Shown: positions 38,307-58,107, numbered from the stretch's first letter. The stretch is 64,000 bases of DNA from an uncultured Thermoplasmatales archaeon (GCA_964526175.1 CAZGIV010000001.1:882-64881), one strand, 5' to 3'. Notes: generated by a model not told the origin, from the letters alone. Numbers and translations: made by a program.

Positions 38307-38787
38307 TTCAAAAAAATTAGATCCGAATTTTAAATATGAAGTATCTGCAGAAATTGGTGGAACAAATATTAATCGATGTTTCGCCTGTGGAACCTGTACC
38401 GCAGGATGCCCCGTCCGTGAGATTGATGAAAAATATAATCCACGAAAAATCATCCACATGGTATTGCTTGGGATGAGAGAACGTGTATTAAAAAGTGATT
38501 TCATCTGGCTCTGTTCTACCTGTTACACTTGTTATGATCGATGCCCGCAGGATGTACAATTAACCAGCATTATGACCGCATTAAAAAACATCGCGGCGCG
38601 TGAGGGATATATCCATCCGTCCTTTAAGGAACAAAACCGTCTTGTAAGCACCTTTGGACGATTATATGAAGTCGAAGATTTTGATAATAAAAAACGAGAG
38701 AAACTAGGTCTACCCCCTATACAAAAGACATTTGAAGATCTCACAAAACTTATGCATGATATGCTACCAAAAGAGGTGACGAAATGA
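38299..38787 (+). CDS. hdrC: Heterodisulfide reductase subunit C-like
   Basis: CFACGTCTAGCP...CSTCYTCYDRCP. The likely start is ATG 38299 (SD GGAGG 8 nt upstream), overlapping the lplA-like stop by 8 nt. The ORF track begins at 38266. Confidence 0.65.
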   Translation: MIDSKKLDPNFKYEVSAEIGGTNINRCFACGTCTAGCPVREIDEKYNPRKIIHMVLLGMRERVLKSDFIWLCSTCYTCYDRCPQDVQLTSIMTALKNIAAREGYIHPSFKEQNRLVSTFGRLYEVEDFDNKKREKLGLPPIQKTFEDLTKLMHDMLPKEVTK

Positions 38788-39665
38788 GATATGCACTATT
38801 CCTTGGATGTACAATCCCGGTTCGAGGGCAGAACTATGAACTGTCAGCACGTGAGGTTGCAAAAAAACTTGACATTGATTTTCTTGATGTCCCAGAATTC
38901 TCCTGCTGCGGGTTTCCCGTAAAATCATCCAATTATGAGGCGTCATTATTAATTGCAGCACGGAATTTAGCGATCGCTGCTGAAAAAAAAGAAAAAATCT
39001 GTACGTTATGTAACGCATGCACCTCGGTTCTGACTGAGGCGAATAAGGAATTGACAAAAAATAAAGAACTCAGAGAAAAAATCAACAAGGAACTTGCAAC
39101 AGTTGATAAAGAATTCAAACCAGGAGTCGAAATTAAACATTTCTCACGGATTCTTTATGAGGACATCGGCATGGATGCCATTCGAGAAAAAATTAAAACA
39201 GATCTGAGCAAACTCAGTATGTCGATTCATTACGGGTGCCATTACCTCAGACCCTCAGAATTATATGATTGTTTCGATGATGCAGAAAACCCATCGACGG
39301 TCGAAAACCTTGTGGCAGTGACGGGAGCCGCAGTCGTTGATTATAAAAACAAGTTAGATTGTTGTGGAGGAGCGATTCTTGGTGTAGAAGAAGACATCGC
39401 GTTGTCCATGGCGAAACAGAAACTCGATCATATCACCGCAAACAAGGTTGATGCATTAGTCACCATTTGTCCGTTTTGTTCAATTATGTATGAGGATAAC
39501 CAGAAGAAAATTGAAACAAAATTCAATGTGAATTATAACCTGCCGGTGTTGTATTATCCACAGGTACTTGGTCTTGCGTTAGGAGTTGATCCAAAACAAC
39601 TCGGGTTCCGACTCAATAAAGTTCGACCAACAGCAATTCTTGAAAAACTCGGGGTGACCCTGTAA
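38784..39665 (+). CDS. hdrB: Heterodisulfide reductase subunit B-like
   Basis: ALFLGCTIPVRGQNYE...SCCGFP...CCGGAILG is the CCG signature. Overlaps hdrC by 4 nt. Confidence 0.7.
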   Translation: MRYALFLGCTIPVRGQNYELSAREVAKKLDIDFLDVPEFSCCGFPVKSSNYEASLLIAARNLAIAAEKKEKICTLCNACTSVLTEANKELTKNKELREKINKELATVDKEFKPGVEIKHFSRILYEDIGMDAIREKIKTDLSKLSMSIHYGCHYLRPSELYDCFDDAENPSTVENLVAVTGAAVVDYKNKLDCCGGAILGVEEDIALSMAKQKLDHITANKVDALVTICPFCSIMYEDNQKKIETKFNVNYNLPVLYYPQVLGLALGVDPKQLGFRLNKVRPTAILEKLGVTL

Positions 39666-42600
39666 TGAAAAACTCTTCGAAATCTGGTAAAATAGGCTCA
39701 GTTCTCGTAGTTGGCGGCGGTATTGGAGGCATGCAAGCTGCCCTTGATCTCGCTGACTCCGGGTTTAAAACCTATCTGTTAGAGGAAAAACCAGCGATTG
39801 GTGGAGTCATGGCCCAACTCGATAAAACATTTCCAACCAATGATTGTTCTATGTGCATTCTTTCCCCGAAACTCGTAGATGTGGGCCGACACCCAAATAT
39901 CGATTTAATTACATATGCTGATTTGCAAGAAATCACAGGGAACAGCGGGAATTTTCAAGTGAAAATTCGTAAGAAAGCAAGTTATGTAGACTCTGAGAAA
40001 TGCACAGGGTGCGGTGAATGTGCAGAAGTCTGCCCGGTAGTTCTTGAGTCTGAGTTTGATGAAGGCTTATCCGATCGTCATGCAATCTATAAAATGTATC
40101 CTCAAGCTATTCCTAATGTCTTTACTATTGATAAAATCGGGATCCCGCCGTGCATGAATGCATGTCCGGCGAATGTGAATGTTCAGGGATACGTTGCATT
40201 GATTCGGGAGGGAAAATTCCAGGAAGCCGCGGATCTTATCCGTGAACGTAATCCATTCCCGGGAGTCTGCGGAAGGATTTGTACCCACGTCTGCGAGGAG
40301 AACTGTAATCGGAAGGAAATTGATGAAGCAGTCGCTGTTCGAGCCTTGAAACGATTTGCTGTTGATTATGAACGGCTCCATGGCCGTAAAGAGACAAAGA
40401 AAAAGAAAAAACAGGTTGAATTACGTGGACAAAACCGTAAAATAGCAGTAATCGGCTCTGGTCCTGCTGGGTTAACGGTTGCATATGATCTTGCGAGAAT
40501 GGGGTATCACCCAACTGTTTTTGAGGCACTCTCACAAGCAGGGGGAATGCTTCGGGTTGGTGTTCCGAATTATCGTTTACCACCAGAAGTCCTTGATTAT
40601 GATATTAAAATAATTCAGGAGGAAGGAGTAGAAATTCGAACGAATACTCCGATAGGTCCTGATCTGACGTTAAATGATTTACATAATGCAGGATATGAAG
40701 CTGTTTTTATTGCGATTGGGACGCATAAAAGCAAGAAACTCGGGATCGATGGTGAAGAATTAGATGGTGTTGTGCACGCAGCAGGATTCTTGCATGATCT
40801 GGGAAGTGGAAAAAAGGTTGATTACGAGGGAAAAATTGTTGCGGTTATCGGCGGAGGAAATGTTGCGATTGATTCGGTCCGAACCGCACTCCGACTGGGA
40901 GCAAAAACAGCATTTGTTATTTATCGTCGTTCTCGTACTGAAATTCCTGCGAATAAAGAGGAATTAGAAGAATGCGAGCGTGAAGGTATTTCGTTCTATT
41001 ATCTAGCTGCACCAACAAAAATCCTGGGTAAAAAAGGGAAGGTAACTGGGTTAGAATGTGTCCGAATGAAACTTGGTGAGCCTGATGATACTGGTCGGAG
41101 ACAAGCCATACCAATAGAAGGCTCAACGTTTACTCTTGATGCTGATGTGGTGATCTCAGCAATTGGCCAAGCACCGCTCTTATCCCCGCTTGCGGAAGCG
41201 GAAGTTGAGTTAGGGTTAAACAAAGAAGGTATCGTTTCTGTTCCTATTCAGAACCTTGAATTAGAAGGCGTCTATGGTTTCACCGCTTTTCTACGTGCCC
41301 TTAGCATGGGTCAGAAAATCGAAATTGGGAAAAAAGTTATTGTTGTCGGAGGGGGAAACGTTGCAATTGATGTTGCTCGGTCAGCACGACGTATCGGAGC
41401 AAAGGAAATCCACCTCATGTGCGTTGAATCCCATGAGGAGATGCCTGCATTTGATTATGAAATTGAAGAAGCAGAACAAGAAGGAATCATTATTCATACG
41501 AGACGGATGCCAAAACGAATCATCGGAGTCGGTGGTCGTGCAATTGGCGTCGAAACCCTCCAGTGTACGTCTGTGTTTGATGAAAAAGGGCGGTTTAACC
41601 CTCAGATCCGACCAAATACTGAATCAGTTATTGAAGCAGATACCATCATCGTTGCTATCGGTCAGGAAGTTGACTATACACTTCTAAAAGCAGCAGATGG
41701 TGTCCTGGTCACAAAACGTGGGTTACTCCAAGTCGATAATTTAACGTATCAAACGAATATCCCCTGGATTTTTGCTGCTGGTGATGCAGTGGTTGGACCA
41801 GGGCTTGTCATTGAAGCAATCGCGCAGGGCCATGAGGCAGCAATCTCCATTGATCGACATCTCAATGGGGAAGAACTATATGAGGGAAGACCCGGAAAAG
41901 AACATATTGTAGCCCCGAAACCTGATAAAAAATTTGAAAAAAAACCTCGGGTGACAATCCCTAAACTTGATGTTGAGAAACGTGTCGAATCTTTTGAAGA
42001 AGTAGAACTTCCGTTAACAGAGGAACAGGCTCGTCTAGAAGCTCAACGGTGTTTAAGTTGTAATTTCTGCTCAATTTGTAAACAATGTGTTGAAGCATGT
42101 GAAGCAGACGCAATCGATCATGATATGAGTGAAAAAATCATTGAACTGAATGTTGGATCAGTGATTTTTGCACCAGGATATGAATTATTTGATGCAACAT
42201 TGAAAAGCGAATATGGGTATGGACGATATAGAAACGTGCTCACATCACTTGAGTTTGAACGAATCCTGTCTGCATCAGGACCATACGCTGGCCATGTGGT
42301 CCGACCGTCTGACCAGAAAGAACCACGAAAAATAGCGTGGATACAATGCGTTGGATCACGTGATAACGCTTGTGGGAAAAATTATTGTTCATCGGTCTGT
42401 TGTACATACGCGATTAAAGAAGCAGTCATAGCAAAAGAACACGCACCCAACATTCAACCAACCATTTTTTATATGGATATGCGCACCTACGGGAAAGGCT
42501 TTGAATCATACTATAATCGCGCGGAAAAAGAATACGGTGTCAGATTTGTCCGATGTCGTATCTCCTCAGTCGAAGAGGATAAAAAAACCAAGAATCTCTC

Positions 42601-44632
42601 AATCAAATATGAAACAGAGGAAGGAACCCTGAAAAAAGAGGACTTTGACCTGGTGATTCTCTCGGTTGGTTTTACCTCCAAAGAGACCATGAAGGATTTA
42701 GCAAAAAAAGTAGGGATATCCCTTAATGAGTTTGGGTTTTGTCAAACCCCTGAGTTTGAACCGCTTGATACCGCACGTCGAGGTGTGTTTGTTTGTGGTG
42801 CTTTTTCAGGTCCAAAAGATATCCCTGAAACAGTCATGGAAGCATCAGGTGCTGCAGCAAAAGCAAGTAGTGTGATCGCTTCAGAACGAAACACGCTTGT
42901 TGAAAAGAAAGAATACCCGCTCGAGCGAGATGTCTCCGGCGAAGACCCAAGGATTGGGGTGTTCATTTGTCATTGTGGGATAAACATTGGAGCATATGTG
43001 AATGTTGAATCAGTGGTTGATTACGTAAAATCGCTGCCAAATGTGATGTATGCTGAAGAGAACCTCTACACATGCTCAGAGGATACGCAACGCAAGATTA
43101 TAGAAAAAATTAAGGAACATAAGTTAAACAGAGTCATTGTTGCTTCGTGTACTCCGCGGACCCATGAACCATTATTCCAAGAAACAATTCGGGAAGCAGG
43201 ATTAAATCCTCATCTTTTTGAGATGGCAAACATCCGAGATCAGTGCTCCTGGGTGCATATGAAGGAGCCAAAAGAGGCAACAGAGAAAGCAAAAGGGATT
43301 GTGAGAATGGCAGTCTCAAAAGCGCGCCTGCTTGAACCGATACAGACGATTGAATTGAATGTGACGCAGAAAGCATTAGTAATTGGTGGTGGACTTGCTG
43401 GGATGATAGCAGCACTCACAATTGCTGACCAAGGCTTTGAAGTGTTCCTTGTTGAAAAAGAAAAAGAACTGGGGGGCAATCTTCAGAATATTTCATGGAC
43501 TCTTGAGGATCATGATGTCAGGCCATACATGAGATCAATCGTTGAAAAAGTAGAGAAACACCCAAAAATCAAGGTGTTTAAAAAAGCAACGGTCGATAAG
43601 GTCGATGGATATGTTGGGAATTATACGACAACGCTGAAGAATGGTGCGACAAAAGTCAAAATTGAACATGGTATAATCATTGTCGCAACAGGAGCCGAAG
43701 AGTATAAACCAACAGAATATTTGTATGGGAAAAACAATCATGTCATGACACAGTTAGAGCTCGAGAAACATCTTGCTACTGGTACCGGGTTTGGCAAAAA
43801 TACTATTGTGATGATTCAATGTGTCGGTTCCCGGGAAGAAAACCGACCGTATTGTAGTAGAATCTGTTGCACTGATGCGATTAAAAATGCGTTGAAAATT
43901 AAAGAACGGCACCCAGATACAGAAATTTTCATTTTATATCGTGATATGCGAACCTATGCGTTCCGGGAAACATACTATGAGAAAGCACGTGACAAGGGTG
44001 TTCTTTTTATTCGTTTTGATAAAGATCAGAAACCAATAGTGAAAAAAGGAAAAGATGGTCTGGAAATCGAAACACGAGATATCATCCTTGGAGAAAAACT
44101 GTTGATTCATGCGGATTATCTGATTCTGAGCTCTGCGATTATTCCTGCAACGGATAATGAGCAGCTGGCAAAAAAACTGAAGGTTCCTCTGAATGAAGAT
44201 GGATTCTTTTTAGAGGCGCATGTGAAACTTCGACCTGTTGATTTTGCAACAGAAGGTATTTTCCTAACCGGTATGGCACATTCTCCAAAATCGATTACGG
44301 AAACAATTGCGCAATCCTATGGCGCAGCAGCTCGAGCGTTAACGATCATTTCGAAAGATAAATATTACACGGATGCACCCATCGCATGCGTCAGTGAAGA
44401 CCTGTGTAGTGGTTGTGGTGTCTGTGAGAAGATATGTCCATATAATGCGATAGAGATGGTTGCTGTTTCCAAGGATGGAAAAGAGGGGAGAGTGTCCCGT
44501 GTTATTGAAGCAGTATGTAAGGGTTGTGGGAGTTGTATTGCAGCGTGTCCGTCAGGTGCGATAGATCAGAAAGGATTCAAGCGGGAGCAAATCATTTCTA
44601 TGGTTGATGCAGCGGCAGAACAGGGTACATAA
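39665..44632 (+). CDS. hdrA: Giant HdrA fusion (1655 aa): an N-terminal HdrA-like FAD/ferredoxin module containing an inserted GltD/NfnB-like NAD(P)H-binding module, followed by a complete canonical HdrA
   Basis: VLVVGGGIGGMQAALDLADSGF...DKTFPTNDCSMC...CTGCGECAEVCP. GltD-like N-domain ...CPANVNVQGYVALI...NPFPGVCGRICTHVCEENC.... Rossmann folds KIAVIGSGPAGLTVAYDLARMGY and VIGGGNVAIDSVRTALRLGAK. Then ...YCSSVCCTYA.... Canonical N-domain RIGVFICHCGINI...CTPRTH...ANIRDQCSWVH. ALVIGGGLAGMIAALTIADQGF. C-terminal CSGCGVCEKICP...CKGCGSCIAACPSGAI. Confidence 0.7.
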   Translation: MKNSSKSGKIGSVLVVGGGIGGMQAALDLADSGFKTYLLEEKPAIGGVMAQLDKTFPTNDCSMCILSPKLVDVGRHPNIDLITYADLQEITGNSGNFQVKIRKKASYVDSEKCTGCGECAEVCPVVLESEFDEGLSDRHAIYKMYPQAIPNVFTIDKIGIPPCMNACPANVNVQGYVALIREGKFQEAADLIRERNPFPGVCGRICTHVCEENCNRKEIDEAVAVRALKRFAVDYERLHGRKETKKKKKQVELRGQNRKIAVIGSGPAGLTVAYDLARMGYHPTVFEALSQAGGMLRVGVPNYRLPPEVLDYDIKIIQEEGVEIRTNTPIGPDLTLNDLHNAGYEAVFIAIGTHKSKKLGIDGEELDGVVHAAGFLHDLGSGKKVDYEGKIVAVIGGGNVAIDSVRTALRLGAKTAFVIYRRSRTEIPANKEELEECEREGISFYYLAAPTKILGKKGKVTGLECVRMKLGEPDDTGRRQAIPIEGSTFTLDADVVISAIGQAPLLSPLAEAEVELGLNKEGIVSVPIQNLELEGVYGFTAFLRALSMGQKIEIGKKVIVVGGGNVAIDVARSARRIGAKEIHLMCVESHEEMPAFDYEIEEAEQEGIIIHTRRMPKRIIGVGGRAIGVETLQCTSVFDEKGRFNPQIRPNTESVIEADTIIVAIGQEVDYTLLKAADGVLVTKRGLLQVDNLTYQTNIPWIFAAGDAVVGPGLVIEAIAQGHEAAISIDRHLNGEELYEGRPGKEHIVAPKPDKKFEKKPRVTIPKLDVEKRVESFEEVELPLTEEQARLEAQRCLSCNFCSICKQCVEACEADAIDHDMSEKIIELNVGSVIFAPGYELFDATLKSEYGYGRYRNVLTSLEFERILSASGPYAGHVVRPSDQKEPRKIAWIQCVGSRDNACGKNYCSSVCCTYAIKEAVIAKEHAPNIQPTIFYMDMRTYGKGFESYYNRAEKEYGVRFVRCRISSVEEDKKTKNLSIKYETEEGTLKKEDFDLVILSVGFTSKETMKDLAKKVGISLNEFGFCQTPEFEPLDTARRGVFVCGAFSGPKDIPETVMEASGAAAKASSVIASERNTLVEKKEYPLERDVSGEDPRIGVFICHCGINIGAYVNVESVVDYVKSLPNVMYAEENLYTCSEDTQRKIIEKIKEHKLNRVIVASCTPRTHEPLFQETIREAGLNPHLFEMANIRDQCSWVHMKEPKEATEKAKGIVRMAVSKARLLEPIQTIELNVTQKALVIGGGLAGMIAALTIADQGFEVFLVEKEKELGGNLQNISWTLEDHDVRPYMRSIVEKVEKHPKIKVFKKATVDKVDGYVGNYTTTLKNGATKVKIEHGIIIVATGAEEYKPTEYLYGKNNHVMTQLELEKHLATGTGFGKNTIVMIQCVGSREENRPYCSRICCTDAIKNALKIKERHPDTEIFILYRDMRTYAFRETYYEKARDKGVLFIRFDKDQKPIVKKGKDGLEIETRDIILGEKLLIHADYLILSSAIIPATDNEQLAKKLKVPLNEDGFFLEAHVKLRPVDFATEGIFLTGMAHSPKSITETIAQSYGAAARALTIISKDKYYTDAPIACVSEDLCSGCGVCEKICPYNAIEMVAVSKDGKEGRVSRVIEAVCKGCGSCIAACPSGAIDQKGFKREQIISMVDAAAEQGT
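42251..42654 (+). repeat. Gene-conversion tract shared with the paralogous hdrA at 50095-50498. The core 42395-42654 is 100% identical at nucleotide level. A ~58-nt divergent patch at 42337-42394 interrupts it.
   Basis: Direct comparison of the two copies: 260 consecutive identical nucleotides, flanked by only protein-level similarity. The encoded peptides are identical (...CCTYAIKEAVIAKEHAPNIQPTIFYMDMRTYGKGFESYYNRAEKEYGVRFVRCRISSVEEDKKTKNLSIKYETEEGTLKKEDFDLV). Confidence 0.8.
43163..43293 (+). repeat. Second gene-conversion tract: 131 nt identical to 51007-51137 in the paralogous giant hdrA
   Basis: Identical nucleotide string encoding ...HEPLFQETIREAGLNPHLFEMANIRDQCSWVHMKEPKEATEKAK in both genes. 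Flanks differ. Confidence 0.8.
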
Positions 44633-44701
44633 AAAAAAAATATATGCGTCTCATAGTTCTACATGCATGACATAATGGGGTGCTGAGCGGATGGCGAAGG
44701 T

Positions 44702-45130
44702 ATGACTGAGCGATTTGAACCATCGATTCTTGCATTTTTGTGTAACTGGTGCAGTTATGCAGGAGCAGATCTTGCTGGTACTAGCCGGATGCAGTACCCG
44801 ACGAATGTGAAAATAATTCGGGTGATGTGCTCTGGTCGGGTGAATCCTTCCTTTGTGTTAAATGCGATGCAGAGTGGTATTGATGGTGTTATTATTGGAG
44901 GATGTCATCCAGGGGAATGTCACTACAACCAGGGGAATTATCTCACACGACGTCGTATTACTCTGCTCAAACTGCTCCTAGAATACGTCGGGATTGACCC
45001 TCGTCGTGTTCAAATGACCTGGGTGTCTGCTTCCGAAGGTGGTAAATTTGCTGAGGTGATGAAAAAGGTTACTGAGGAGATTCGAAAGCTTGGTCCCATT
45101 CAGCAAATAAAAAGGAGTAATGAATGGTAG
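44702..45130 (+). CDS. mvhD: MvhD-like [2Fe-2S] subunit (second copy)
   Basis: ILAFLCNWCSYAGADLAGTSR...IRVMCSGRVNP...GCHPGECHY. Confidence 0.7.
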   Translation: MTERFEPSILAFLCNWCSYAGADLAGTSRMQYPTNVKIIRVMCSGRVNPSFVLNAMQSGIDGVIIGGCHPGECHYNQGNYLTRRRITLLKLLLEYVGIDPRRVQMTWVSASEGGKFAEVMKKVTEEIRKLGPIQQIKRSNEW

Positions 45131-46077
45131 AGATTTCGCAAATTCAAGCAGAAGCAAGAAAAATTTTTGATACCTATGACGTGCAATATATTTTAGGGTA
45201 TTCAAACGAATCGTTCGGGATTCAGCCTGTACCGTTTTTTGCGAAAAAGAAACCGGATGTCAACCATCTTATTTTCTCTCCGTTTTGTGTGAATAATCTT
45301 ACGATGTATCTGAAAAATTATGAGGGAAATGAAAAAATTGGTATTGTCGTGAAAGGTTGTGATAGCCGCTCATTAATCCAATTAATTATAGAAAAGAGGA
45401 TACCTCGTGAAAATCTTGTCATTATTGGAATCTCTTGCGGTGGCGTTATCGATCAGAAAAAATTTCAAACCAAGTTCCCCGATGTTATCGGCTCAGTAGA
45501 TGTTGTAGAAAAAGATGACCTGTTTATTTTCACCATTGCTGGAAAGAAGCATCAGGTTTCAAAGAAAGAAGTTCTGTTAGAGAAATGCATCCATTGTGAG
45601 TACCCTACTCCGTTGCTGTATGATGTTCTTCTGGGAGAAAAAAAACAGCCTTTTAAATCGGAGAGTTATTCTGATGTGAAACAAATTGAGGCAAAATCCC
45701 TTCAGGAGAAATGGAATTTTTGGGAAAAACAGTTTAGTCGTTGTATCCGATGTTATGCGTGTCGAAATATCTGTCCAGTCTGTTTTTGTAAAGAGTGTTC
45801 AGCTGAGCAGTTAAACCCGCAATGGCTGAGACGGTCAGTAACAATTTCAGAAAACACGGTATGGCATTTGACAAGAGCGTTACATGTTGCTGGACGCTGT
45901 ACAGGATGTGGTGAATGCGAACGCGTTTGTCCAATGAGTATCCCATTAATGTTGCTCAATAAGAAAATGCTCAAAGAGGTAAAAGATTTATTTGAGTATA
46001 CGCCAGGAATATCTGTTGATGCTAAACCTCTTCTCGCTGCCTATAAACCCGATGACCCAGAGGATTGTATCATTTAG
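45124..46077 (+). CDS. FrhB/FdhB-family-like Fe-S (flavo)protein
   Basis: The N-terminal region (...KIGIVVKGCDSRSLIQLI...ISCGGVIDQ...) resembles the FrhB-type fold. C-terminal Cys clusters CIRCYACRNICPVCFC and CTGCGECERVCP. The call rests on recalled family features only. Confidence 0.35.
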   Translation: MVEISQIQAEARKIFDTYDVQYILGYSNESFGIQPVPFFAKKKPDVNHLIFSPFCVNNLTMYLKNYEGNEKIGIVVKGCDSRSLIQLIIEKRIPRENLVIIGISCGGVIDQKKFQTKFPDVIGSVDVVEKDDLFIFTIAGKKHQVSKKEVLLEKCIHCEYPTPLLYDVLLGEKKQPFKSESYSDVKQIEAKSLQEKWNFWEKQFSRCIRCYACRNICPVCFCKECSAEQLNPQWLRRSVTISENTVWHLTRALHVAGRCTGCGECERVCPMSIPLMLLNKKMLKEVKDLFEYTPGISVDAKPLLAAYKPDDPEDCII

Positions 46078-46085
46078 GTGAATGA

Positions 46086-47108
46086 ATGAAAAGCTATACG
46101 ATAAAAAAAGATAAAGTATCTGATTTTATTTCACATCTGATAAAGAAGAATATTGTCTGGGGGCCAGTAAAGCAAGACGATACCATTATCTATAAACAAA
46201 TCAACACACCTCAGGAGATAACCCTTGATTTTTTAAAGGTAAAAATACCACCGAAAACAATTGTTTTTCCTCAAACAGAGACGTTAGTACGCTTTCATAA
46301 AGAAAAAGACGTCACGACTGAGACACCATCACCCGAAAAAAAGGACGCCATTATCTTTGGAGTTAGACCCTGCGACGCAAAAAGCTTCCTTCTTTTTGAT
46401 GCAGTGTTCAAAGGTGATTGCGAAGACCCGTTTTATTGCTCAAAAAGAGCTACGACAATTTTGATTGGTCTAACATGTATAAACCCACCAATGAATTGTT
46501 TTTGTTCAAGCGTTGGAGGAAACCCTGATGATCCAAGCGGGCTTGACATTCTCCTCACTGATATGACAGATTCATATTATATGGAGATTATTACTGAACG
46601 AGGAGAACACCTCCTAAAGGATTTTATCGGACGTACAGAAGCAACTCAACAAGATACGAAAAAGAGAGACACCATCTGTACGCAAGCCAAAAAAAGTATC
46701 AAACGTCAGGTTTCTGTTGAACGTATCGATTCAATTCTTGATGCAATCTTTGACTCGCCATACTGGGAAACCATAGCACAACGATGCATTGGATGTGGAA
46801 TCTGTACGTTTCTATGCCCAACCTGTCATTGTTTCGACATCCAGGATGAATCATCACAAAACAAAGGGGCACGTGTTCGCATCTGGGACTCCTGTATGTT
46901 CTCAGAATACTCGTGCCATGCCTCTGGGTATAACCCACGAGCGACACAAATGAACCGAGTGCGAAATCGGATCTATCATAAATTTAATTATCTTCTTAAA
47001 AACAATCAGGTTCTAGGTTGTGTAGGATGCGGAAGGTGTATTGACGAATGCCCTGTTCATATTGATATTGTAGAAATTATCAAGAATGCACGGGGGGTGA
47101 AACAGTAA
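46086..47108 (+). CDS. Sulfhydrogenase/anaerobic sulfite reductase beta (HydB/AsrA-like) Fe-S subunit
   Basis: CIGCGICTFLCPTCHCFD and CVGCGRCIDECPVH. Paralog of the minus-strand gene 55411-56451. Confidence 0.55.
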   Translation: MKSYTIKKDKVSDFISHLIKKNIVWGPVKQDDTIIYKQINTPQEITLDFLKVKIPPKTIVFPQTETLVRFHKEKDVTTETPSPEKKDAIIFGVRPCDAKSFLLFDAVFKGDCEDPFYCSKRATTILIGLTCINPPMNCFCSSVGGNPDDPSGLDILLTDMTDSYYMEIITERGEHLLKDFIGRTEATQQDTKKRDTICTQAKKSIKRQVSVERIDSILDAIFDSPYWETIAQRCIGCGICTFLCPTCHCFDIQDESSQNKGARVRIWDSCMFSEYSCHASGYNPRATQMNRVRNRIYHKFNYLLKNNQVLGCVGCGRCIDECPVHIDIVEIIKNARGVKQ

Positions 47109-47941
47109 AAAACCCGTACCTACCTCTCCCGGCAACCATTGAACATATCGTTGAAGAAGTTGGTGGGCAACGAGCGATTAAAACATTCCGGTTAGTTTTT
47201 ACAAATGTAAAAAACAAGCAGGAGTTTGCCTTTCGTCCAGGTCAATGTGTCATGGTTGGTCTTTTAGGAATCGGAGAATGTATGTTTGCGATCTCATCGT
47301 CTCCGACAAAGAAAGAGTTTGTTGAAATAAGTGTCATGAGACATGGGAAAGTTACCAATGCATTGCATAATTGTAAACCAGGGGATTCTGTTGGAATCCG
47401 CGGCCCCTATGGCAATGGCTTTCCTGTTGACAACTGGAGGGGAAAAAACCTCGTATTTATCGGTGGAGGAATCGGCCAAGCACCACTCCGGCCAGTCATT
47501 CAATATGTGATTAATAATCGAAAACAGTATGGAACTATCGATATTTTTTATGGTGCAAGAACCTCGCAAGAGCTTTGTTATAAAAATGAATTTATTGAAT
47601 TAGAAAAACATACTGATTTAAACGTTCATCTCTCAGTTGACAGCGAAGAAAAAGAATGGAAGGGGTTCACAGGGTTTGTTCCTGAAAATCTTAGAAGGAT
47701 AAAACCAGCAGCAAAAAACAGTATTGCAATTACCTGTGGCCCTCCTATAATGATTAAAATCGTTATCGATAATCTCATTCACCTTGGTTTTCCTGAGACG
47801 AATATTTTTACCACGTTGGAAATGAGGATGAAATGCGGTATCGGGAAATGCGGCCGATGTAATGTTGGTCCATTGTATGTCTGTAAGGACGGACCAGTGT
47901 TTTCCTATGATCAATTACACCATATCAAGGGAGAACGATGA
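47105..47941 (+). CDS. Sulfhydrogenase gamma / AsrB / PyrK-like FAD-NAD(P)H oxidoreductase subunit with a C-terminal [2Fe-2S]. The 5' boundary is unresolved: the conserved N-terminus has no canonical start codon.
   Basis: Homology to the paralog (MKNEYQFYPAIIKKIVKE...) begins at (V)KNPYLPLPATIEHIVEEV, encoded from 47105. The codon there is GTA and overlaps the upstream TAA stop. There is no in-frame ATG/GTG/TTG until Met 47252. NAD/FAD motifs GGGIGQAPLRPV. C-terminal CGIGKCGRCNVGPLYVCKDGPVF. Confidence 0.5.
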   Translation, partial: VKNPYLPLPATIEHIVEEVGGQRAIKTFRLVFTNVKNKQEFAFRPGQCVMVGLLGIGECMFAISSSPTKKEFVEISVMRHGKVTNALHNCKPGDSVGIRGPYGNGFPVDNWRGKNLVFIGGGIGQAPLRPVIQYVINNRKQYGTIDIFYGARTSQELCYKNEFIELEKHTDLNVHLSVDSEEKEWKGFTGFVPENLRRIKPAAKNSIAITCGPPIMIKIVIDNLIHLGFPETNIFTTLEMRMKCGIGKCGRCNVGPLYVCKDGPVFSYDQLHHIKGER

Positions 47942-50900
47942 ACGAATCTCAACGAAATGCCAACGGAAAAAAACCTGTGGAAAAACCATCTAAGGTCGTT
48001 TCACAAGTACTTGTCGTCGGGGGCGGGATTTCCGGCATCCAAAGTGCTCTTGATTTAGCGAATTCGGGTTTTAAAGTATATCTTGTTGAAAAGAAGCCAA
48101 GTATTGGGGGAGTCATGGCGCAACTGGATAAAACATTTCCTACCAATGATTGTTCCATGTGCATTCTTTCTCCTAAGCTTGTTGAATCTGGACGACATCC
48201 GAATATTGAAATATTAACAGGTTCAAATGTCGAGCAGGTGAACGGACAAGCAGGTCATTTTCAGGTCACCATACGAAAACACTCCCGGTTTGTAGATATT
48301 GAAAAATGTAAAAGTTGTGGGGATTGTCGTGATGTGTGCCCGGTCATTCAGTCGAATGTGTTTGAAGAAAAGTTGTGTAACCGGAATGCAATCTATCAAT
48401 TGTTTCCTCAGGCAAACCCAAGTGCATATGTGATTGAAAAACAAGGGGTTTCTCCGTGTCGGATAGCTTGCCCAGCTGGACTAAATGCGCATGCATTCAT
48501 CGCGCTTGCATCACAAGAAAAATACGCAGAAGCATATGAACTTATCAAAGAGACCATACCGCTCCCAGGTTCACTTGGTAGAATCTGCTATCATCCTTGT
48601 GAAACTGAATGCAACCGAAAAGATATCGAAGAACCACTCTCCATATGTCGGATTAGACGATTTATTGCTGATTACATGTATGAACATCCAGAGACACTTT
48701 CTGACTATCAAAAAAATAAAAACGAAAAACAACTAGAAAGAAATCAAAAAGGAAGGGGCAACGATCAGAAGGTGGCAATAGTAGGTTCTGGTCCTGCTGG
48801 TATTACTGCTGCGTATGACCTCTCCAAATTAGGATATAAACCTACTATTTTCGAAGCAGAAAAATACAATGGAGGAATGCTCCACTACGGAGTACCAGAC
48901 TACCGACTCCCAAAAGAATATCTTCATAAAGAAATCGACCTCCTCTGTCAAGATCAGCAAATTGAGCTAAAAAACAATCAAAAACTCGGCAGAGACTTCA
49001 CCTTACAAGACCTAAAAAAACAAGGATATAAAGCAATCTTCCTTGCCATCGGTGCTCATAAAAGCCGTAGTGCAGGAATCGAAGGTTGCACTGGAACCGA
49101 CACCTGTGCCCTCGAAGGAGTCGAATATCTCAAGCAACTCAATCGAAATATGATCACCCTAGATTACTTCAAAGGAAAAAAAATCCTTATAATCGGCGGT
49201 GGAAACGTTGCGATGGATTCCGCACGAACCGCCCGGCGACTCGGAGGAAACGTTACTGTCGTCTATAGACGAACCATCAAAGAAATGCCCGCGCACCAGG
49301 AAGAAATCAACCAAGCGGAAGAAGAAGGTATCGAGTTTATCTTTCTTACCGCTCCAACACAACTTCAAAAAAGAGAAAAAGAAACATGTCTCCAGTGCGT
49401 GCGAATGGAACTCGGGGAACCAGATGCTTCTGGACGACGTCGTCCTAAAAAAATTCCAGAATCAGAATTTGACATTTCATGCGATTTTACTATCTTTGCC
49501 ATCGGACAGGAACTTGACACAAAACTCATGGAAGAAAACAAAATTGATATTGGCGAAAACAGGTTCATCAAGGTTGACCCTATCACCTTGCTAACATCAC
49601 AAGACGGGGTCTTTGCTGGTGGAGACGCCGTCACCGGACCAGCATCAGCAGTTGAAGCTATTGCTGCAGGTCACCAAGCCGCGATCTCCATCGACCGCTA
49701 CCTCCACGATGAAGATCAGAAAAAAGGACGAGAACCTCAACCACAAAAGAAAGCTGATATTCCGAAACAAACAATCCATATCCATTCCTCCAGAGAAACT
49801 CCCCTTTTTTTATCCCCTGAAGAACGGATAAAATCCTTTGTCGAAATCGATCAAGGATTCACCAAAGAACAATTCCAACGCGAAGTAAAACGATGCCTCA
49901 ATTGCGCAGGATGCTGCGAATGCTTCCAATGTGTTCAGCATTGTGAACCTGATGCCATTGATCATACTATGAAAGATAAAACAATAACCTTAGATGTCGG
50001 ATCGATTATTCTTTCTCCAGGTTTCGATGAATTTCAACCTGAAATAAAACGGGAGTACGGTTATCGTCGTTTTCCAAATGTTATCACAAGTATCGAGTTT
50101 GAACGAATCCTGTCTGCATCAGGACCATACGCTGGTCATGTGGTCCGACCGTCTGACCAGAAAGAACCACGAAAAATAGCATGGATACAATGTGTCGGAT
50201 CAAGAGATGTGAAATTGAATAAAAATTATTGTTCATCAGTCTGTTGTACATACGCGATTAAAGAAGCAGTCATAGCAAAAGAACACGCACCCAACATTCA
50301 ACCAACCATTTTTTATATGGATATGCGCACCTACGGGAAAGGCTTTGAATCATACTATAATCGCGCGGAAAAAGAATACGGTGTCAGATTTGTCCGATGT
50401 CGTATCTCCTCAGTCGAAGAGGATAAAAAAACCAAGAATCTCTCAATCAAATATGAAACAGAGGAAGGAACCCTGAAAAAAGAGGACTTTGACCTGGTTG
50501 TGTTATCTGTCGGCCTTAGTTCCCCTGATGATGCTGAAAGTCTTTCCACTGTTTTTGGGGTTAAACTCAATCAGTATAATTTTGCTTCAACAACCTCATT
50601 CGAACCATTCCATACCACCACATCAGGTATTTATGTCGCTGGAGCGTTTTCCGGTCCGAAGGATATTCCCGAGACAGTCACCCAAGCGAGTGGCGCAGCA
50701 GCTTTAGCATCCGCTCTTCTTTCAAAAGCCAGAGGGGATTGTGTGACAGTGAAACAATATCCTCCATTAAAAGACGTACAATATTCAACACCCCGAGTTG
50801 GTGTGTTCATTTGCCACTGTGGAAGCAACATTGGAGGGTTCCTTGATGTCTCTTCGATTACTGAATATTCAAAAAACCTTCCTTTTGTCGTCTATGCGGA

Positions 50901-52473
50901 AAATAACTTATTTACTTGTTCTCAGGATACACAGACCCATATCAAGGACATCATTAATGAGTATGATATTAACCGGGTCGTTGTTGCTTCATGTACACCA
51001 CGAACTCATGAACCATTATTCCAAGAAACAATTCGGGAAGCAGGATTAAATCCTCATCTTTTTGAGATGGCAAACATCCGAGATCAGTGCTCCTGGGTGC
51101 ATATGAAGGAGCCAAAAGAGGCAACAGAGAAAGCAAAGGATCTTCTTCGAATGGCGGTTTCAAAAGCAGCATTATTACAACCGTTACCAATCGTAACACT
51201 GCCCGTGAATCAAAATGCGTTGGTGATCGGTGGTGGACTTACTGGATTAATCGCTTCAGTCAAGTTAGCTGAAGAAGGTTTCCCCGTGTATTTAGTTGAG
51301 AAAGAAAAAGAACTTGGTGGGAACCTCCGACATATTTATTCGACAATTAATGGAGGAGATGTACAATCATTCCTTCATAATTTAATTCAGAAAGTTAAGG
51401 ATAATTCCCACATTCATGTTTTCACAGACACACAAATCGATTCTCTCAACGGCTATGTCGGCAATTTTACAACCGTTATTAAGAATAGGAATGATACCAA
51501 GGAATTGCACCATGGAATTATCCTAGTAGCAACCGGTGCACAAGAATATCAGCCCTCTGAGTATCTTTATGGCAAAGATACACGAGTCCTTACGCAACGT
51601 GAATTTGAACAACTGTTGACAAAAAAAGAAGTTCCTGTACAAAAACCAGAAACCATTGTGATGATTCAATGCGTTGGCTCCCGAGATGAGCAACGACCGT
51701 ATTGTAGTAGAATCTGTTGTACAGAGGCAATAAAGAACGCATTAAATTACTCAGATCAAAACAAAAACGCTGCTATTTACGTGTTATATCAAGATATCCG
51801 GACATATGGGTTCAGAGAGGAATATTATCAAAAGGCACGAGAAAAAGGGATTGTCTTTCTTCATTATACCCCTGAGAAAAAACCAATCGTGCAGAATACG
51901 AATGGAAAGCTAACGATACGTATATACGATGTTATTTTAGGTGAGGATGTTCTCATTGACGCTGATTATTTGGTGTTAAGCACAGGAATAATTCCCCTGC
52001 CCGAGAATCAGTTGTTATCAAAGCTTCTTAAAGTTCCATTGAATGAAGATGGATTCTTCTTAGAAGCACATGTGAAACTCCGACCAGTGGATTTTGCAAC
52101 GGATGGGATCTTTCTTGCGGGTTTTGCGCATTCTCCAATGTTTATTGAAGAAAGTATTGCACAAGCCTGCGCTGCTGTCTCTCGTGCTTGTACGATTTTA
52201 AGTAAAGAATCACTGAAGCTTCCTGGAACAATCGCTAAGGTCAATGAAGAGCGATGTGCCGGTTGTGGGTTATGCGAACAGGTTTGTGTCTACAAGGCCA
52301 TTGAACTGGTAAAAAAGAAGATAAAAGGTAAAGAGCAGTTAGTCGCGATCGTCAATGAGGGGATATGTAAAGGGTGCGGGGTATGTGCAGGTGCCTGTTT
52401 TTCAGGAGCAATCACCCATAGAGGGTATAAAGATGAACAAATCCTTGCTATGATACACTCAATGGAAAAATAA
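47938..52473 (+). CDS. hdrA: Second giant HdrA-GltD fusion (1511 aa). It has the same architecture as 39665-44632 and carries two tracts converted against that gene.
   Basis: VLVVGGGISGIQSALDLANSGF...NDCSMC.... GltD-like KVAIVGSGPAGITAAYDLSKLGY and IIGGGNVAMDSARTARRLGG. ...YCSSVCCTYA.... N-domain RVGVFICHCGSNI...CTPRTH...ANIRDQCSWVH. ALVIGGGLTGLIASVKLAEEGF. C-terminal CAGCGLCEQVC...CKGCGVCAGACFSGAI. Confidence 0.7.
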   Translation: MNESQRNANGKKPVEKPSKVVSQVLVVGGGISGIQSALDLANSGFKVYLVEKKPSIGGVMAQLDKTFPTNDCSMCILSPKLVESGRHPNIEILTGSNVEQVNGQAGHFQVTIRKHSRFVDIEKCKSCGDCRDVCPVIQSNVFEEKLCNRNAIYQLFPQANPSAYVIEKQGVSPCRIACPAGLNAHAFIALASQEKYAEAYELIKETIPLPGSLGRICYHPCETECNRKDIEEPLSICRIRRFIADYMYEHPETLSDYQKNKNEKQLERNQKGRGNDQKVAIVGSGPAGITAAYDLSKLGYKPTIFEAEKYNGGMLHYGVPDYRLPKEYLHKEIDLLCQDQQIELKNNQKLGRDFTLQDLKKQGYKAIFLAIGAHKSRSAGIEGCTGTDTCALEGVEYLKQLNRNMITLDYFKGKKILIIGGGNVAMDSARTARRLGGNVTVVYRRTIKEMPAHQEEINQAEEEGIEFIFLTAPTQLQKREKETCLQCVRMELGEPDASGRRRPKKIPESEFDISCDFTIFAIGQELDTKLMEENKIDIGENRFIKVDPITLLTSQDGVFAGGDAVTGPASAVEAIAAGHQAAISIDRYLHDEDQKKGREPQPQKKADIPKQTIHIHSSRETPLFLSPEERIKSFVEIDQGFTKEQFQREVKRCLNCAGCCECFQCVQHCEPDAIDHTMKDKTITLDVGSIILSPGFDEFQPEIKREYGYRRFPNVITSIEFERILSASGPYAGHVVRPSDQKEPRKIAWIQCVGSRDVKLNKNYCSSVCCTYAIKEAVIAKEHAPNIQPTIFYMDMRTYGKGFESYYNRAEKEYGVRFVRCRISSVEEDKKTKNLSIKYETEEGTLKKEDFDLVVLSVGLSSPDDAESLSTVFGVKLNQYNFASTTSFEPFHTTTSGIYVAGAFSGPKDIPETVTQASGAAALASALLSKARGDCVTVKQYPPLKDVQYSTPRVGVFICHCGSNIGGFLDVSSITEYSKNLPFVVYAENNLFTCSQDTQTHIKDIINEYDINRVVVASCTPRTHEPLFQETIREAGLNPHLFEMANIRDQCSWVHMKEPKEATEKAKDLLRMAVSKAALLQPLPIVTLPVNQNALVIGGGLTGLIASVKLAEEGFPVYLVEKEKELGGNLRHIYSTINGGDVQSFLHNLIQKVKDNSHIHVFTDTQIDSLNGYVGNFTTVIKNRNDTKELHHGIILVATGAQEYQPSEYLYGKDTRVLTQREFEQLLTKKEVPVQKPETIVMIQCVGSRDEQRPYCSRICCTEAIKNALNYSDQNKNAAIYVLYQDIRTYGFREEYYQKAREKGIVFLHYTPEKKPIVQNTNGKLTIRIYDVILGEDVLIDADYLVLSTGIIPLPENQLLSKLLKVPLNEDGFFLEAHVKLRPVDFATDGIFLAGFAHSPMFIEESIAQACAAVSRACTILSKESLKLPGTIAKVNEERCAGCGLCEQVCVYKAIELVKKKIKGKEQLVAIVNEGICKGCGVCAGACFSGAITHRGYKDEQILAMIHSMEK

Positions 52474-52483
52474 TATCCTCTTT

Positions 52484-53782
52484 TTAATGTGTTGAACAGG
52501 AGATACATGGGTCGTATGCGCGAACAAGCATTTCACATTTCAGTTTGATTTCTTCAACTGGTTCATCAAGCATTGTACCTAAAAACTCATGCATATCTTT
52601 CTCAACGTTGTTTGCATTGTGTGCTGTTGGAGGAACGAGGTCCGCTTTTCGTATGATACCATTGTTATCTAGTACATAACTATGGTAGAGGCTTCCTCGT
52701 GGTGCCTCAGTGATTGCAGCACCAAATCCTGCGCGACATCCGATGTCCCAATGTTCTTCTTTGAGGGGGACGCGATCGATGATGTCTATAGATTCGTCGA
52801 TACTATCAACGAGTTCGATGGCACGTGCAAGATGTGAGACGAATGGATTGTAATTAGGGAATTTCACCCCACTTTTCTTTGCTGCCTCCTTCGCATCCGA
52901 TGAAAGTTGCCCAAAGTTCAAGTTCACTCTGGGAAGAGGCCCAACCATGAATGAACCTTTTGTTTTCAATTGAGAGTGAAGCGCTGTCGAATAAGGGACT
53001 TGTTTTTCAGAAATATAGTCACGGTATTCAGACTCATGAATGTTTAATCCTTCTGTGGATCGTAAACGACCGATGTTTATGGCATATGATTTTGGATTAG
53101 AAATCGCGATGTGCTCACATTTACGAACAAATTGAGGTATTTTTAATTTGGAGAAAAGATCTACGGTCTCAAACGCATCATTTTTTGCTTCAACCAAACG
53201 TTTACGTATTGCCTGGAGTTTGTTTTTGTTTGGTAGAGCAGTAAATCCTCCGACGACAGCAGTCACAGGGTGTACCGCCCGGCCACCAATCAAATCAGAG
53301 AGGTCATTTCCAAGTTTTTTCAGTTTGAGTCCTCTTTTTATGACATCCAGATGATCCTTCGTCATCGCAAGAGTACTCTCATAGCCGAGAAGATCAGGAA
53401 GTGAAAGGAAATACATGCTAAGCACATGACTTTGAATGTGCGCACTGAGTGCAAGTAGTTTTCGTAAATCCTTTGTTTGCTCACTTGGTTCTAAGCCTAT
53501 CGCATTTTCCACAGCTCGTAACGCAGTGATTTGATGAGCAACAGGACAAATACCGCATAGACGAGAGGTTAACTCCATCATTTCCGTATAACGTCGTCCA
53601 ATAAGGAAAGCTTCAAAGAATCGCGGTGGCTCATGTATTCGAAATTGTAAATCCTGTATCTTTCCTTCTTTTGAAATACTTATATTTAAAGCACCCCGTC
53701 CTTCCACTCGGGCGATGTAGTTCACTTCGATTGTTTTTGTTTTCGGTGTAGATTCTTTAAGGGTCATAGAATTTTCGGTCAT
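52484..53782 (-). CDS. [NiFe] hydrogenase large (alpha) subunit, group 3b/sulfhydrogenase-like
   Basis: ...ARVEGRGALNI..., RLCGICPVAHQITA, C-terminal DPCISCSTH. Last gene of the minus-strand beta-gamma-delta-alpha operon. Confidence 0.7.
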   Translation of the reverse strand: MTENSMTLKESTPKTKTIEVNYIARVEGRGALNISISKEGKIQDLQFRIHEPPRFFEAFLIGRRYTEMMELTSRLCGICPVAHQITALRAVENAIGLEPSEQTKDLRKLLALSAHIQSHVLSMYFLSLPDLLGYESTLAMTKDHLDVIKRGLKLKKLGNDLSDLIGGRAVHPVTAVVGGFTALPNKNKLQAIRKRLVEAKNDAFETVDLFSKLKIPQFVRKCEHIAISNPKSYAINIGRLRSTEGLNIHESEYRDYISEKQVPYSTALHSQLKTKGSFMVGPLPRVNLNFGQLSSDAKEAAKKSGVKFPNYNPFVSHLARAIELVDSIDESIDIIDRVPLKEEHWDIGCRAGFGAAITEAPRGSLYHSYVLDNNGIIRKADLVPPTAHNANNVEKDMHEFLGTMLDEPVEEIKLKCEMLVRAYDPCISCSTH

Positions 53783-54544
53783 TTAATGTCCTGCCTCCTT
53801 GCGAAAATCTGCAGTCATCCCAGCATATTTCCTGAACTTGCGTTGTATGTCATCTTCGTGAACTCCTATTTCTTTAAAGATAGCAGCGAGTGCAGCAGCA
53901 TTTGGATTGCTCATTGGTCCATAACAGCCCTCGCATTCTCTACCAAGAGACGGACATATCGCACCGCATCCTGCGCTTGTCACAGGTCCCATACACGGTA
54001 TTTTTTTACTTGTTATGAGACATTCATTATCTCTAAATTTACACTCAACGCAGACCGGATGTTGACGGAGGCGTGGTCTGATGTTGAGCAGCGATGCTTT
54101 CACAAACTCAAGGATGGTGTTACGATGAGGAGGACAGCCTCTCAACTCGGTATCCACTTTTATATATTCTCCGATTCCCATCACTTTCATTGAATGAATC
54201 GTTGATGTATCCGGATATACTCTATTTTCTGCTTCCATCTGTGGAATCCAATTTCGAATGGAAGGAATGCACCCGGCTATTGCACAGTCACCGAATGCCA
54301 CAACAATCTTGGATTTTTTCCGTATCTGCTTGATTTCTTCAATTTCTTCAGGTGTTGAAATCCCACCCTCGACAAGGCTGATATCCCATGGCCCGTCAAT
54401 GTTGTCACGTTTCACCATCATCCAGTAGGTGATGTCAATCACATCAAGAAGTTTTAGAAAAACGTCTTCTAAATGCAAGAGTTCTAATTGACATCCTGCG
54501 CATCCGGTGAACTTGAAGATTCCAACTTTTGGTTTCGTGCTCAT
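53783..54544 (-). CDS. [NiFe] hydrogenase small (delta) subunit, group 3-like
   Basis: FKFTGCAGCQLELLHL is the proximal-cluster motif. Multiple C-terminal Cys ligands. Abuts the large-subunit gene with no gap. Confidence 0.6.
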   Translation of the reverse strand: MSTKPKVGIFKFTGCAGCQLELLHLEDVFLKLLDVIDITYWMMVKRDNIDGPWDISLVEGGISTPEEIEEIKQIRKKSKIVVAFGDCAIAGCIPSIRNWIPQMEAENRVYPDTSTIHSMKVMGIGEYIKVDTELRGCPPHRNTILEFVKASLLNIRPRLRQHPVCVECKFRDNECLITSKKIPCMGPVTSAGCGAICPSLGRECEGCYGPMSNPNAAALAAIFKEIGVHEDDIQRKFRKYAGMTADFRKEAGH

Positions 54545-54561
54545 AGTGTTATTTCAACCTC

Positions 54562-55392
54562 TTATAAAGGACGGATAAACGGACGTATCTCATCGTAGTT
54601 GAATACTGGCCCATCTTTACAGACGTACTTTGAGCCTATCTGGCAATGTCCACATTTGCCAAAACCGCATTTCATGCGACGTTCGAGTGAAAGAAAAATT
54701 TGATTATCTTTAAATCCAATCGTCTCCAAACATTTTGTCGCGTATCGCATCATGATTTCCGGACCGCAAATGAGAGCAACTGAGTTATGTGGTCGAGTCT
54801 TCATACTTGGAAAACAAGAAGTAACTAAACCAACTTTACACTCCCACCGTGAACCAAGAGAAAGAGAATCGACGGTTAAATCAAACCTGGAATTTTTTAT
54901 TTCACGCCATCGTCCAAATTCATATTTAAAGACCATATCATCAGGAGTTCGAGAGCCATAAATGATTTCAAGATGACCATACTGATTCCTATTTTTATTC
55001 ACATGATCAATAACTCCTCGAAGAGGAGGAAGCCCAATTCCACCTGCTATAAGTAAAATATCTTTTCCTTTCATTTCTTCTAAAGGCCAGCCTATACCAT
55101 AGGGACCACGTACGCCTAGAATATCTCCTTCTTTACGATTAAAAATTGAGTTTGTGACATTTCCGACGTTACGAATGGTTGTTGAAAAAGTCCCATCGTC
55201 TTCTATTTTTGAAATAGATAATGCTGCTTCTCCGACTCCTATGATTCCGATCATCATAAATTGACCGGGGACACAAGTAAATTCCTTTTGTTTCTCTTTA
55301 TCAACATAAGCAAGCGTATATGTAGCAGTGTTTACGGTTTCTTTAACAATTTTTTTAATAATTGCTGGATAAAATTGATATTCATTTTTCAT
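54562..55392 (-). CDS. Sulfhydrogenase gamma / AsrB-like FAD-NAD(P)H subunit with [2Fe-2S]
   Basis: LIAGGIGLPPLRGVI. C-terminal CGFGKCGHCQIGSKYVCKDGPVF. N-terminus MKNEYQFYPAII.... Confidence 0.6.
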   Translation of the reverse strand: MKNEYQFYPAIIKKIVKETVNTATYTLAYVDKEKQKEFTCVPGQFMMIGIIGVGEAALSISKIEDDGTFSTTIRNVGNVTNSIFNRKEGDILGVRGPYGIGWPLEEMKGKDILLIAGGIGLPPLRGVIDHVNKNRNQYGHLEIIYGSRTPDDMVFKYEFGRWREIKNSRFDLTVDSLSLGSRWECKVGLVTSCFPSMKTRPHNSVALICGPEIMMRYATKCLETIGFKDNQIFLSLERRMKCGFGKCGHCQIGSKYVCKDGPVFNYDEIRPFIRPL

Positions 55393-55410
55393 GGTTGCCT
55401 GTTGTATAGG

Positions 55411-56667: not shown

Positions 56668-56688
56668 TTTAATTGGAAGGGAGATTTA

Positions 56689-57216: not shown

Positions 57217-57221
57217 ACATC

Positions 57222-58103: not shown

Positions 58104-58107
58104 GCAC

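Follow-up and report, generated by a model that had tools for sequence, protein, structure and literature searches.

Two giant hdrA-like genes, referred to as A and B, lie 8 kb apart on the same strand of a 64,000-nt sequence from an uncultured Thermoplasmatales archaeon (GCA_964526175.1 CAZGIV010000001.1:882-64881), and the near-perfectly identical tracts that they share are very probably the product of ectopic, non-reciprocal gene conversion from A to B. The copying took place in short A-to-B blocks, is repeated in several lineages, and has boundaries that are sharp and partly shared. The whole 64-kb stretch is called the window, its copies of the two genes are winA and winB, and L-numbers denote homologous loci in relatives. 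A first-pass annotation of the window had proposed recent non-reciprocal recombination between the two genes, and this proposal is supported by silent sites, by a switch in tree topology and by A-type residues in both copies. Both open reading frames (ORFs) are present where that annotation had placed them:

39665-44632, + strand: gene A, an ORF of 1655 amino acids (aa); HdrA-like flavo-iron-sulfur fusion and tract donor
47938-52473, + strand: gene B, an ORF of 1511 aa; paralog of A and acceptor, a mosaic of B-type and A-type segments

Repeat finding and direct comparison reveal two exact tracts in these genes, one of 260 nt (42395-42654 in A, 50239-50498 in B) and one of 131 nt (43163-43293 in A, 51007-51137 in B), with a constant A-to-B offset of 7844; the lengths, coordinates and 100% identity reported in the first-pass annotation are exact. 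The background against which they stand was measured on a protein-guided codon alignment of A and B with the tracts left out, and is 52% identical in amino acids and 58.5% in nucleotides, in keeping with the earlier description of the genes as diverged over most of their length. Third-position identity outside the tracts is only about 0.35-0.4, and silent sites are therefore saturated. Among 668 background positions with an identical, degenerate amino acid, the same codon is used in just 42.4%, and the longest exact run between the two genes is 26 nt. The degenerate codons within the tracts are identical without exception (84/84 in the 260-nt tract and 40/40 in the 131-nt tract; P ~1e-31 and ~1e-15), and 2000 permutations of the codon columns produced no run of more than 35 nt, compared with the 260 nt observed. 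A third copy of either tract is absent from the 64-kb window, and the other two hdrA-like genes within it (26725-29940 and 58081-60102) reach about 66% identity there. A simple recent duplication, for which equally identical flanks had been named as the sign, is ruled out because the flanks are only 51-60% identical and thus not as similar as the tracts. The antisense ORFs noted earlier share an identical 43-aa peptide and are, as had been suggested, a mere by-product of the tracts.

The fine structure of the shared region is as follows, in the order in which the segments occur in A, each followed by its counterpart in B:

42251-42345, + strand: tract 1a in A, in the HdrA TrxR-like domain, residues EFERILSASGPY...; 2 mismatches in 95 nt, at 42292 and 42337
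50095-50189, + strand: tract 1a in B, converted copy
42346-42376, + strand: unconverted island in A, 'NACGK', with 15 of 31 nt mismatched, in the spacer of the motif CxGxRD-x7-CSxxCC
50190-50220, + strand: unconverted island in B, 'VKLNK', remnant of ancestral B sequence
42377-42654, + strand: tract 1b in A, containing the 260-nt exact tract; 1 mismatch in 278 nt, at 42394
50221-50498, + strand: tract 1b in B, converted copy with A-type residues CCTYAIKEAV, FYMDMRTYGKG and RCRISSVEED
42655-43162, + strand: unconverted segment of A between the tracts, 56% nucleotide identity to B
50499-51006, + strand: unconverted segment of B between the tracts, B-type
43163-43293, + strand: tract 2 in A, in the homolog of the HdrA N-terminal domain; 0 mismatches in 131 nt
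51007-51137, + strand: tract 2 in B, converted copy with the A-type sequence ETIREAGLNPHLF

Tract 1 thus has a full span of 42251-42654 in A and 50095-50498 in B, broken by the 31-nt island. The divergent patch of about 58 nt that had been described just 5' of the first tract does exist (42337-42394, 16 mismatches), but its core is the island, and tract 1 resumes on the 5' side and extends to 42251. Four codons of the island are wholly different, NACG in A and VKLN in B, with A carrying an extra Cys, and the island of winB resembles the B-type 'PHINK' of L004B, L006B and L008B. Tract 1 encodes A residues 863-997, including the cysteine motif, and corresponds to residues ~354-489 of the HdrA subunit of the HdrABC-MvhAGD complex (PDB 5ODC_A); tract 2 encodes A residues 1167-1210, corresponding to HdrA ~76-119. 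As both tracts are colinear with HdrA and free of insertion, they are not a shared mobile insertion such as an intein, an insertion sequence or a miniature inverted-repeat transposable element.

Tracts 1a, 1b and 2 together contain 3 differences in 504 nt (42292, 42337 and 42394). At all three, winB is identical to the A gene of the closest relative (L001A), which indicates that the changes arose in A after copying; at 42292 and 42337 winB also agrees with L117. With so few differences in the tracts and a divergence of about 5% between the window and L001, the last conversions must be very recent. Differences number 2 in 95 nt in tract 1a and 1 in 409 nt in tracts 1b and 2, from which the ages of the tracts are not separable.

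A species-representative scan assigns the locus to uncultured Thermoplasmatota. The closest match is DATLAF010000182 (L001), with 98% aa identity to A, followed by Thermoplasmatales SM1-50, Thermoplasmata M11B2D and others. More loci were obtained by a metagenome scan with B, a protein search and contig look-ups; an exact-sequence look-up of A and B returned no match, and a near-identical B (P0001) came from the homology search. Comparison with these orthologous loci, which the first-pass annotation had recommended, yields two different groupings, the flanks uniting genes of one paralog type and the tracts uniting the genes of one genome. Trees were built by neighbour-joining with bootstraps, using 41400-42223, 42655-43162 and 43294-44600 as flank regions. 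In the flank trees, all B genes form one clade with a bootstrap of 1.0, and winA, L001A and L117A form another (1.0). In the tree of tract 1b, winA is joined to winB at 1.0 to the exclusion of even L001A, and the two paralogs are likewise joined within L117 (1.0), L161 (1.0) and L162 (0.92). These within-genome pairs are all nested in the A clade (0.92-0.94), and the B genes of the other clade (L004, L006, L079, L128, L136) stand apart at 1.0. In tract 2, winA and winB are again joined at 1.0. The residues that distinguish the two types are:

Tract 1b: A-type CCTYAIKEAV (winA and winB), B-type CCMYAVKEAV (other clade)
Tract 1b: A-type FYMDMRTYGKG (winA and winB), B-type FFMDMRAFGKD (other clade)
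Tract 1b: A-type RCRISSVEED (winA and winB), B-type RSRISNIDED (other clade)
Tract 2: A-type ETIREAGLNPHLF (winA and winB), B-type DTIKEAGLNPYLF (other clade)

The direction of copying follows from the same comparison. Identity among A genes of different species is 0.81 in tract 1b and 0.81-0.82 in the flanks, the tract of winA is 95% identical to L001A, as are its flanks, and winA holds no B-type tract. As both copies carry A-type residues and the A tract diverges in the same way as the A flanks, A is the donor and B the acceptor, and the transfer is non-reciprocal. The segment between the tracts has kept its own identity in each gene, the A segment (42655-43162) showing 76-83% aa identity to A orthologs vs 54-57% to B orthologs, and the B segment (50499-51006) 67-71% to B orthologs vs about 55% to A orthologs. 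An earlier conversion of tract 1a common to the window and L117 (winB+L117B, 0.94) was considered and withdrawn, because the region used (42224-42364) included B-type flanks; in the core, 42275-42345, the paralogs of each genome share three lineage-specific sites. These three fixed sites, which differ between the window and L117 and are common to both paralogs of each genome, support lineage-specific homogenisation of tract 1a.

Conversion of this segment is found well beyond the window. The gene order A, mvhD-like gene, two Fe-S genes, pyrK-like gene and B is present in L004, L006, L079, L117/L130, L128, L136, L161 and L162. Within genomes, the identity of A and B in tract 1b is 1.00 in the window, 0.96 in L117, 0.92 in L161 and 0.83 in L162, compared with 0.51-0.60 in the flanks, and between genomes this tract is about 0.81 identical in A/B, A/A and B/B comparisons alike. 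At tract 1, M11B2D has an overlap of 144 identical nt within its genome. In the sister clade (L004, L006, L079, L128, L136), tract 1b is B-type at 0.64-0.74 and not homogenised. A self-megablast of all loci at >=93% missed the L117 tract, as its high-scoring segment pairs ran into the diverged flanks, and exact runs were counted on codon alignments instead; the longest exact A/B runs within genomes are 260, 114, 69, 50, 80 and 92 nt, and the between-genome median is 20 nt. Throughout the clade that has the window's type of B gene, tract 1b is A-type in every B gene, and within each genome A and B are closer to each other than to their orthologs, which means that A was copied into B in an ancestor and that the block was homogenised anew several times afterwards. 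Four lineages, the window, L117, L161 and L162, have in common the right edge of tract 1b (~42654, after 'FDLV') and the island, which is B-type in their B genes and A-type in the B gene of M11B2D. Tracts are also found at other positions, at 39752-39843 in L004, 43422-43484 in L008 and 43811-43863 in L160. In L079, A carries B-type residues ('RFPNV..SI') in the part corresponding to 42224-42364 of winA and matches the B gene of the same genome exactly over 80 + 55 nt; the direction there is thus B to A, the opposite of the window. Taken together, these loci show that HdrA-like fusion genes of Thermoplasmatota evolve in concert, recurrently and within a restricted segment. The recent recombination proposed in the first-pass annotation is accurate in that the last copying is very young, and has to be widened from one event to a series, since homogenisation of this segment has occurred again and again in the clade.

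Several further observations were made on the relatives. L159 (94% to B) and L001 (98% to A) were considered as parts of one genome, a pairing that was rejected since their tracts are not identical. L136A is nearest to L128A (0.85 nucleotide identity), and L136B is nearest to L006B (0.88) and L004B (0.83), a conflict between the A and B trees that suggests replacement of the B gene or its transfer between lineages. L117 and L130 come from one metagenome (Ga0209164_1000298 and Ga0209164_1000255; 134,730 and 158,780 nt) and are identical across the 21.5 kb compared, which could reflect a redundant assembly or a large duplicated region. In L130, B is followed 7.6 kb downstream by a third, partial B-like ORF (22170-24518), which is 69% identical in amino acids to the N-terminal half of B and has no counterpart in the window. 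In L008, two overlapping ORFs make up A, and the split falls at an exact direct repeat of 55 nt (2813-2867 and 2968-3022), produced either by an assembly error or by a real frameshifting duplication.

The process that would account for the mosaic is one in which short stretches of A are copied into B and overwrite its own sequence, with at least two converted blocks in the window, 42251-42654 to 50095-50498 (including the island) and 43163-43293 to 51007-51137. The copying would depend on RadA-type homologous recombination, with the two direct copies pairing within one chromosome or between sister chromosomes; RadA-type strand exchange is assumed here from general archaeal biology. Once homogenised, a block of such high identity may become the preferred substrate for the next conversion, and the sharp drop in homology at ~42250, at the island and at ~42654 may stop the tracts. 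Selection against conversion of the paralog-specific parts could also contribute.

Some of the evidence weighs against this account or limits its reach. Tracts 1a and 2 are highly conserved as protein and offer few informative sites, tract 2 groups the paralogs by genome clearly in the window genome only, and the tract 2 pair of L117 is weaker, with a bootstrap of 0.83 that falls to 0.28 with more taxa. The evidence from M11B2D depends on contig ends, and L158, a contig discussed below, is perhaps not fully independent of the source of the window in sample or study. The exact 100% (rather than ~99%) could be a slight overstatement, for example from bubble popping of near-identical copies, and the reasons offered for the shared boundaries are a matter of inference.

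The window is a metagenome assembly of an uncultured organism whose relatives are all metagenome-assembled genomes, so that repeat collapse, chimeric joining or mis-polishing might have equalised the tracts while one true copy is diverged, the alternative that the first-pass annotation had set beside recombination. Short-read assemblies do break at the tracts, with L158 starting at 42528, L160 at 43259 (inside tract 2) and M11B2D ending inside tract 1, but a true repeat produces just such contig breaks at tract ends. L158, from another sample of the Joint Genome Institute, matches the window over 42528-61250 with 2 mismatches over 17 kb (42528-59793) and reproduces the complete mosaic of B, in which the flanks to either side are B-type, together with both copies of tract 2 on one contig. 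Its start lies inside the 260-nt repeat, exactly 127 nt ahead of the repeat's end, the signature of a break in a k=127 de Bruijn graph at a true repeat. The contigs of M11B2D end inside tract 1 with a common 144-nt terminal repeat, and in L117, L161 and L162 both genes are assembled without a break, on contigs of 83-554 kb, the tract copies being 96%, 92% and 83% identical; such copies are similar without being identical and cannot have been collapsed. Flanks and middle segment alike belong to the right paralog type, which shows that the assembler swapped no pieces, and the background identity of ~58% leaves no room for mis-mapping or mis-polishing of reads between the paralogs outside the tracts. 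Assembly collapse is therefore very unlikely, and so is an assembly artefact of any of these kinds. An origin of both tracts in a third paralog outside the window, or in horizontal transfer from another strain, is equally improbable. In its favour, the view is limited to 64 kb of the genome, the locus has four or more hdrA-like genes, and strain-level recombination is apparent nearby in a cluster of single-nucleotide polymorphisms (SNPs) relative to L158; against this, the A tract follows the A phylogeny (95% to L001A, and the same A-A identity of 0.81 in tract and flanks), and the other hdrA-like genes of the window show an identity to the tract of only ~66%. That identity extends to every silent site might also point to a constraint on the nucleotide sequence itself, through an RNA or DNA element embedded in both genes, but the segment differs between species at ~19% of positions, as much as its flanks, the positions of the tracts vary among genomes, and an Rfam scan of 39000-53000 gave no family match, leaving this the least credible of the explanations considered.

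A role of selection in the persistence of the mosaic, with conversion as its means, deserves more weight and is possible, though doubtful. Selection would keep the block identical, for a shared partner or for A-B pairing, and protect the island and flanks. The window, L117, L161 and L162 have the edges at ~42654 and at the island (42346-42376) in common despite lineage-specific homogenisation, the island occupies the spacer of the Fe-S cysteine motif with an extra Cys in A, and subunits of complexes are over-represented among published examples of long-lasting concerted evolution (PMC6053082; PMC4632066). Conversion of the island is nevertheless tolerated, since that of the M11B2D B gene is A-type, and identity is not required, since L004, L006, L079, L128 and L136 keep a B-type tract 1b at 64-74%. 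Together with the tracts at other places in L004, L008 and L160 and the B-to-A direction in L079, these points fit an opportunistic, homology-driven conversion. The more specific proposal, that the homogenised block of the FAD/Fe-S core is kept identical for a shared partner or A-B pairing and that the island ('NACGK' in A, 'VKLNK' in B) is shielded as a paralog-specific determinant of, for instance, cluster properties, is slightly less probable again and on balance unlikely.

The SNP cluster is an observation in its own right. The window and L158 show 66 differences, and 64 of these lie in window 59794-61174 (L158 17267-18647), a divergence of 4.6% vs 0.01% elsewhere over 17 kb, and this interval covers the 3' end of the hdrA-like gene 58081-60102, an OsmC-like gene (60148-60543) and the start of the gene 60578-61858. 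It looks like a strain-level recombination import.

Both A and B match HdrA of the HdrABC-MvhAGD complex. The match of A to 5ODC_A (E=2.9e-209) spans the FAD/TrxR-like, N-terminal and ferredoxin domains and the cysteine motif CxGxRD-x7-CSxxCC, in which CVGSRDNACGKNYCSSVCC is aligned to CVGSRDAKVGNKYCSNVCC, and it falls into four rearranged segments:

A residues 14-157: HdrA (5ODC_A) 147-290
A residues 802-1019: HdrA (5ODC_A) 293-511
A residues 1093-1247: HdrA (5ODC_A) 2-156
A residues 1494-1648: HdrA (5ODC_A) 497-647

A GltD/NfnB-like NAD(P)H module of ~630 aa is inserted at A residues 160 to ~790. A thioredoxin-reductase-like segment of ~140 aa (window 41114-41560) is extra in A and wholly absent from B. 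The NCBIfam scores remain under the curated cut-offs, A reaching 1045 bits for HdrA2 (cut-off 1100) and 804 for HdrA (cut-off 1400) and B 1016 for HdrA2 (cut-off 1100), so that 'HdrA-like fusion' is a more accurate label than canonical HdrA; the 'giant hdrA' of the first-pass annotation is broadly right and overlooks the fusion with the GltD/NfnB-like insert. The surrounding genes, identified by Pfam, include:

38266-38787, + strand: HdrC-like gene, upstream of A
38784-39665, + strand: HdrB-like gene with CCG domains, immediately upstream of A
44702-45130, + strand: MvhD/FlpD-like gene, after A
within 44702-47941, + strand: two Fe-S protein genes, between A and B
47252-47941, + strand: PyrK/NfnA-like NAD-binding gene, overlapping the start of B

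Genes for a [NiFe]-hydrogenase follow downstream on the opposite strand (Pfam), and the neighbourhood of A and B fits an Hdr-type system. The window holds four hdrA-like genes in 34 kb (26725-29940, 39665-44632, 47938-52473 and 58081-60102), and a lipoate-protein-ligase-like gene (LplA-B_cat, 37203-38306) adjoins the CCG-domain genes just upstream of A.

The locus provides a clean natural example of short-tract, recurrent conversion in an uncultured lineage of Thermoplasmatota, in which recombination cannot be studied in culture, and direction, tract lengths (~0.1-0.4 kb), boundaries and turnover can be read straight from the sequence. Such tracts break short-read assemblies at predictable places, as in three assemblies here, mislead trees of hdrA-like genes and inflate apparent conservation. 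Whole-gene screens for concerted evolution miss blocks of <10% of a long gene. If selection did maintain the mosaic, the conversion boundaries would amount to a natural map of the residues that set specificity in putative bifurcating-type enzymes.

Ectopic conversion of paralogs, whether dispersed or neighbouring, is known to keep part or all of a coding sequence identical, silent sites included, as in the tuf and thermosome genes. Work by Abdulkarim & Hughes in 1996 reportedly described gene conversion between tufA and tufB in enterobacteria, and conversion of thermosome (chaperonin) paralogs in archaea is said to have been described by Archibald & Roger in 2002. The tuf genes are homogenised over nearly their whole length, unlike the tracts of the hdrA-like genes. 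Among described cases, the nearest is that of mtrA-1 and mtrA-2 in Methanococcales and Methanomicrobiales, where conversion is long-lasting and restricted to a domain (Wang et al. 2015, PMC4632066). In both systems two archaeal paralogs share one locus, part of the sequence is homogenised and the rest diverges, one copy overwrites the other, the paralogs group by species in the converted part, and the process recurs across lineages. The present genes differ in being HdrA-like fusion flavoproteins of non-methanogenic Thermoplasmatota, their blocks are much shorter (~0.1-0.4 kb) and cover no whole domain, with a 31-nt island that escapes, and the time span is modest, among species with 79-87% nucleotide identity in A. 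A genome-wide catalogue lists 26 concertedly evolving prokaryotic genes, of which the seven archaeal ones are all from methanogens; hdrA is not among the 26, and neither 'hdr' nor 'heterodisulfide' occurs anywhere in the text (PMC6053082). As in those cases, paralogs of the hdrA-like genes within one genome are closer than orthologs in several species, and they encode subunits of energy-metabolism complexes, but the catalogue rests on a whole-gene screen that would probably miss a block under 10% of a gene of 4.5-5 kb. Literature searches, whose coverage is incomplete and which do not prove absence, found no earlier report of hdrA gene conversion. All HdrA domains can be recognised in the proteins, which share with HdrA of 5ODC the CxGxRD-x7-CSxxCC motif and hdrB/hdrC/mvhD-like neighbours, and they depart from it in that the modules of A are split, reordered and interrupted by the GltD/NfnB-like insert, and in that the organism is not a known methanogen. 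The phenomenon is thus a known one, as for mtrA and tuf, with no new mechanism or kind of system, and the locus adds to it a fresh example in the form of a sub-domain, recurrently converted block in hdrA-like fusions.

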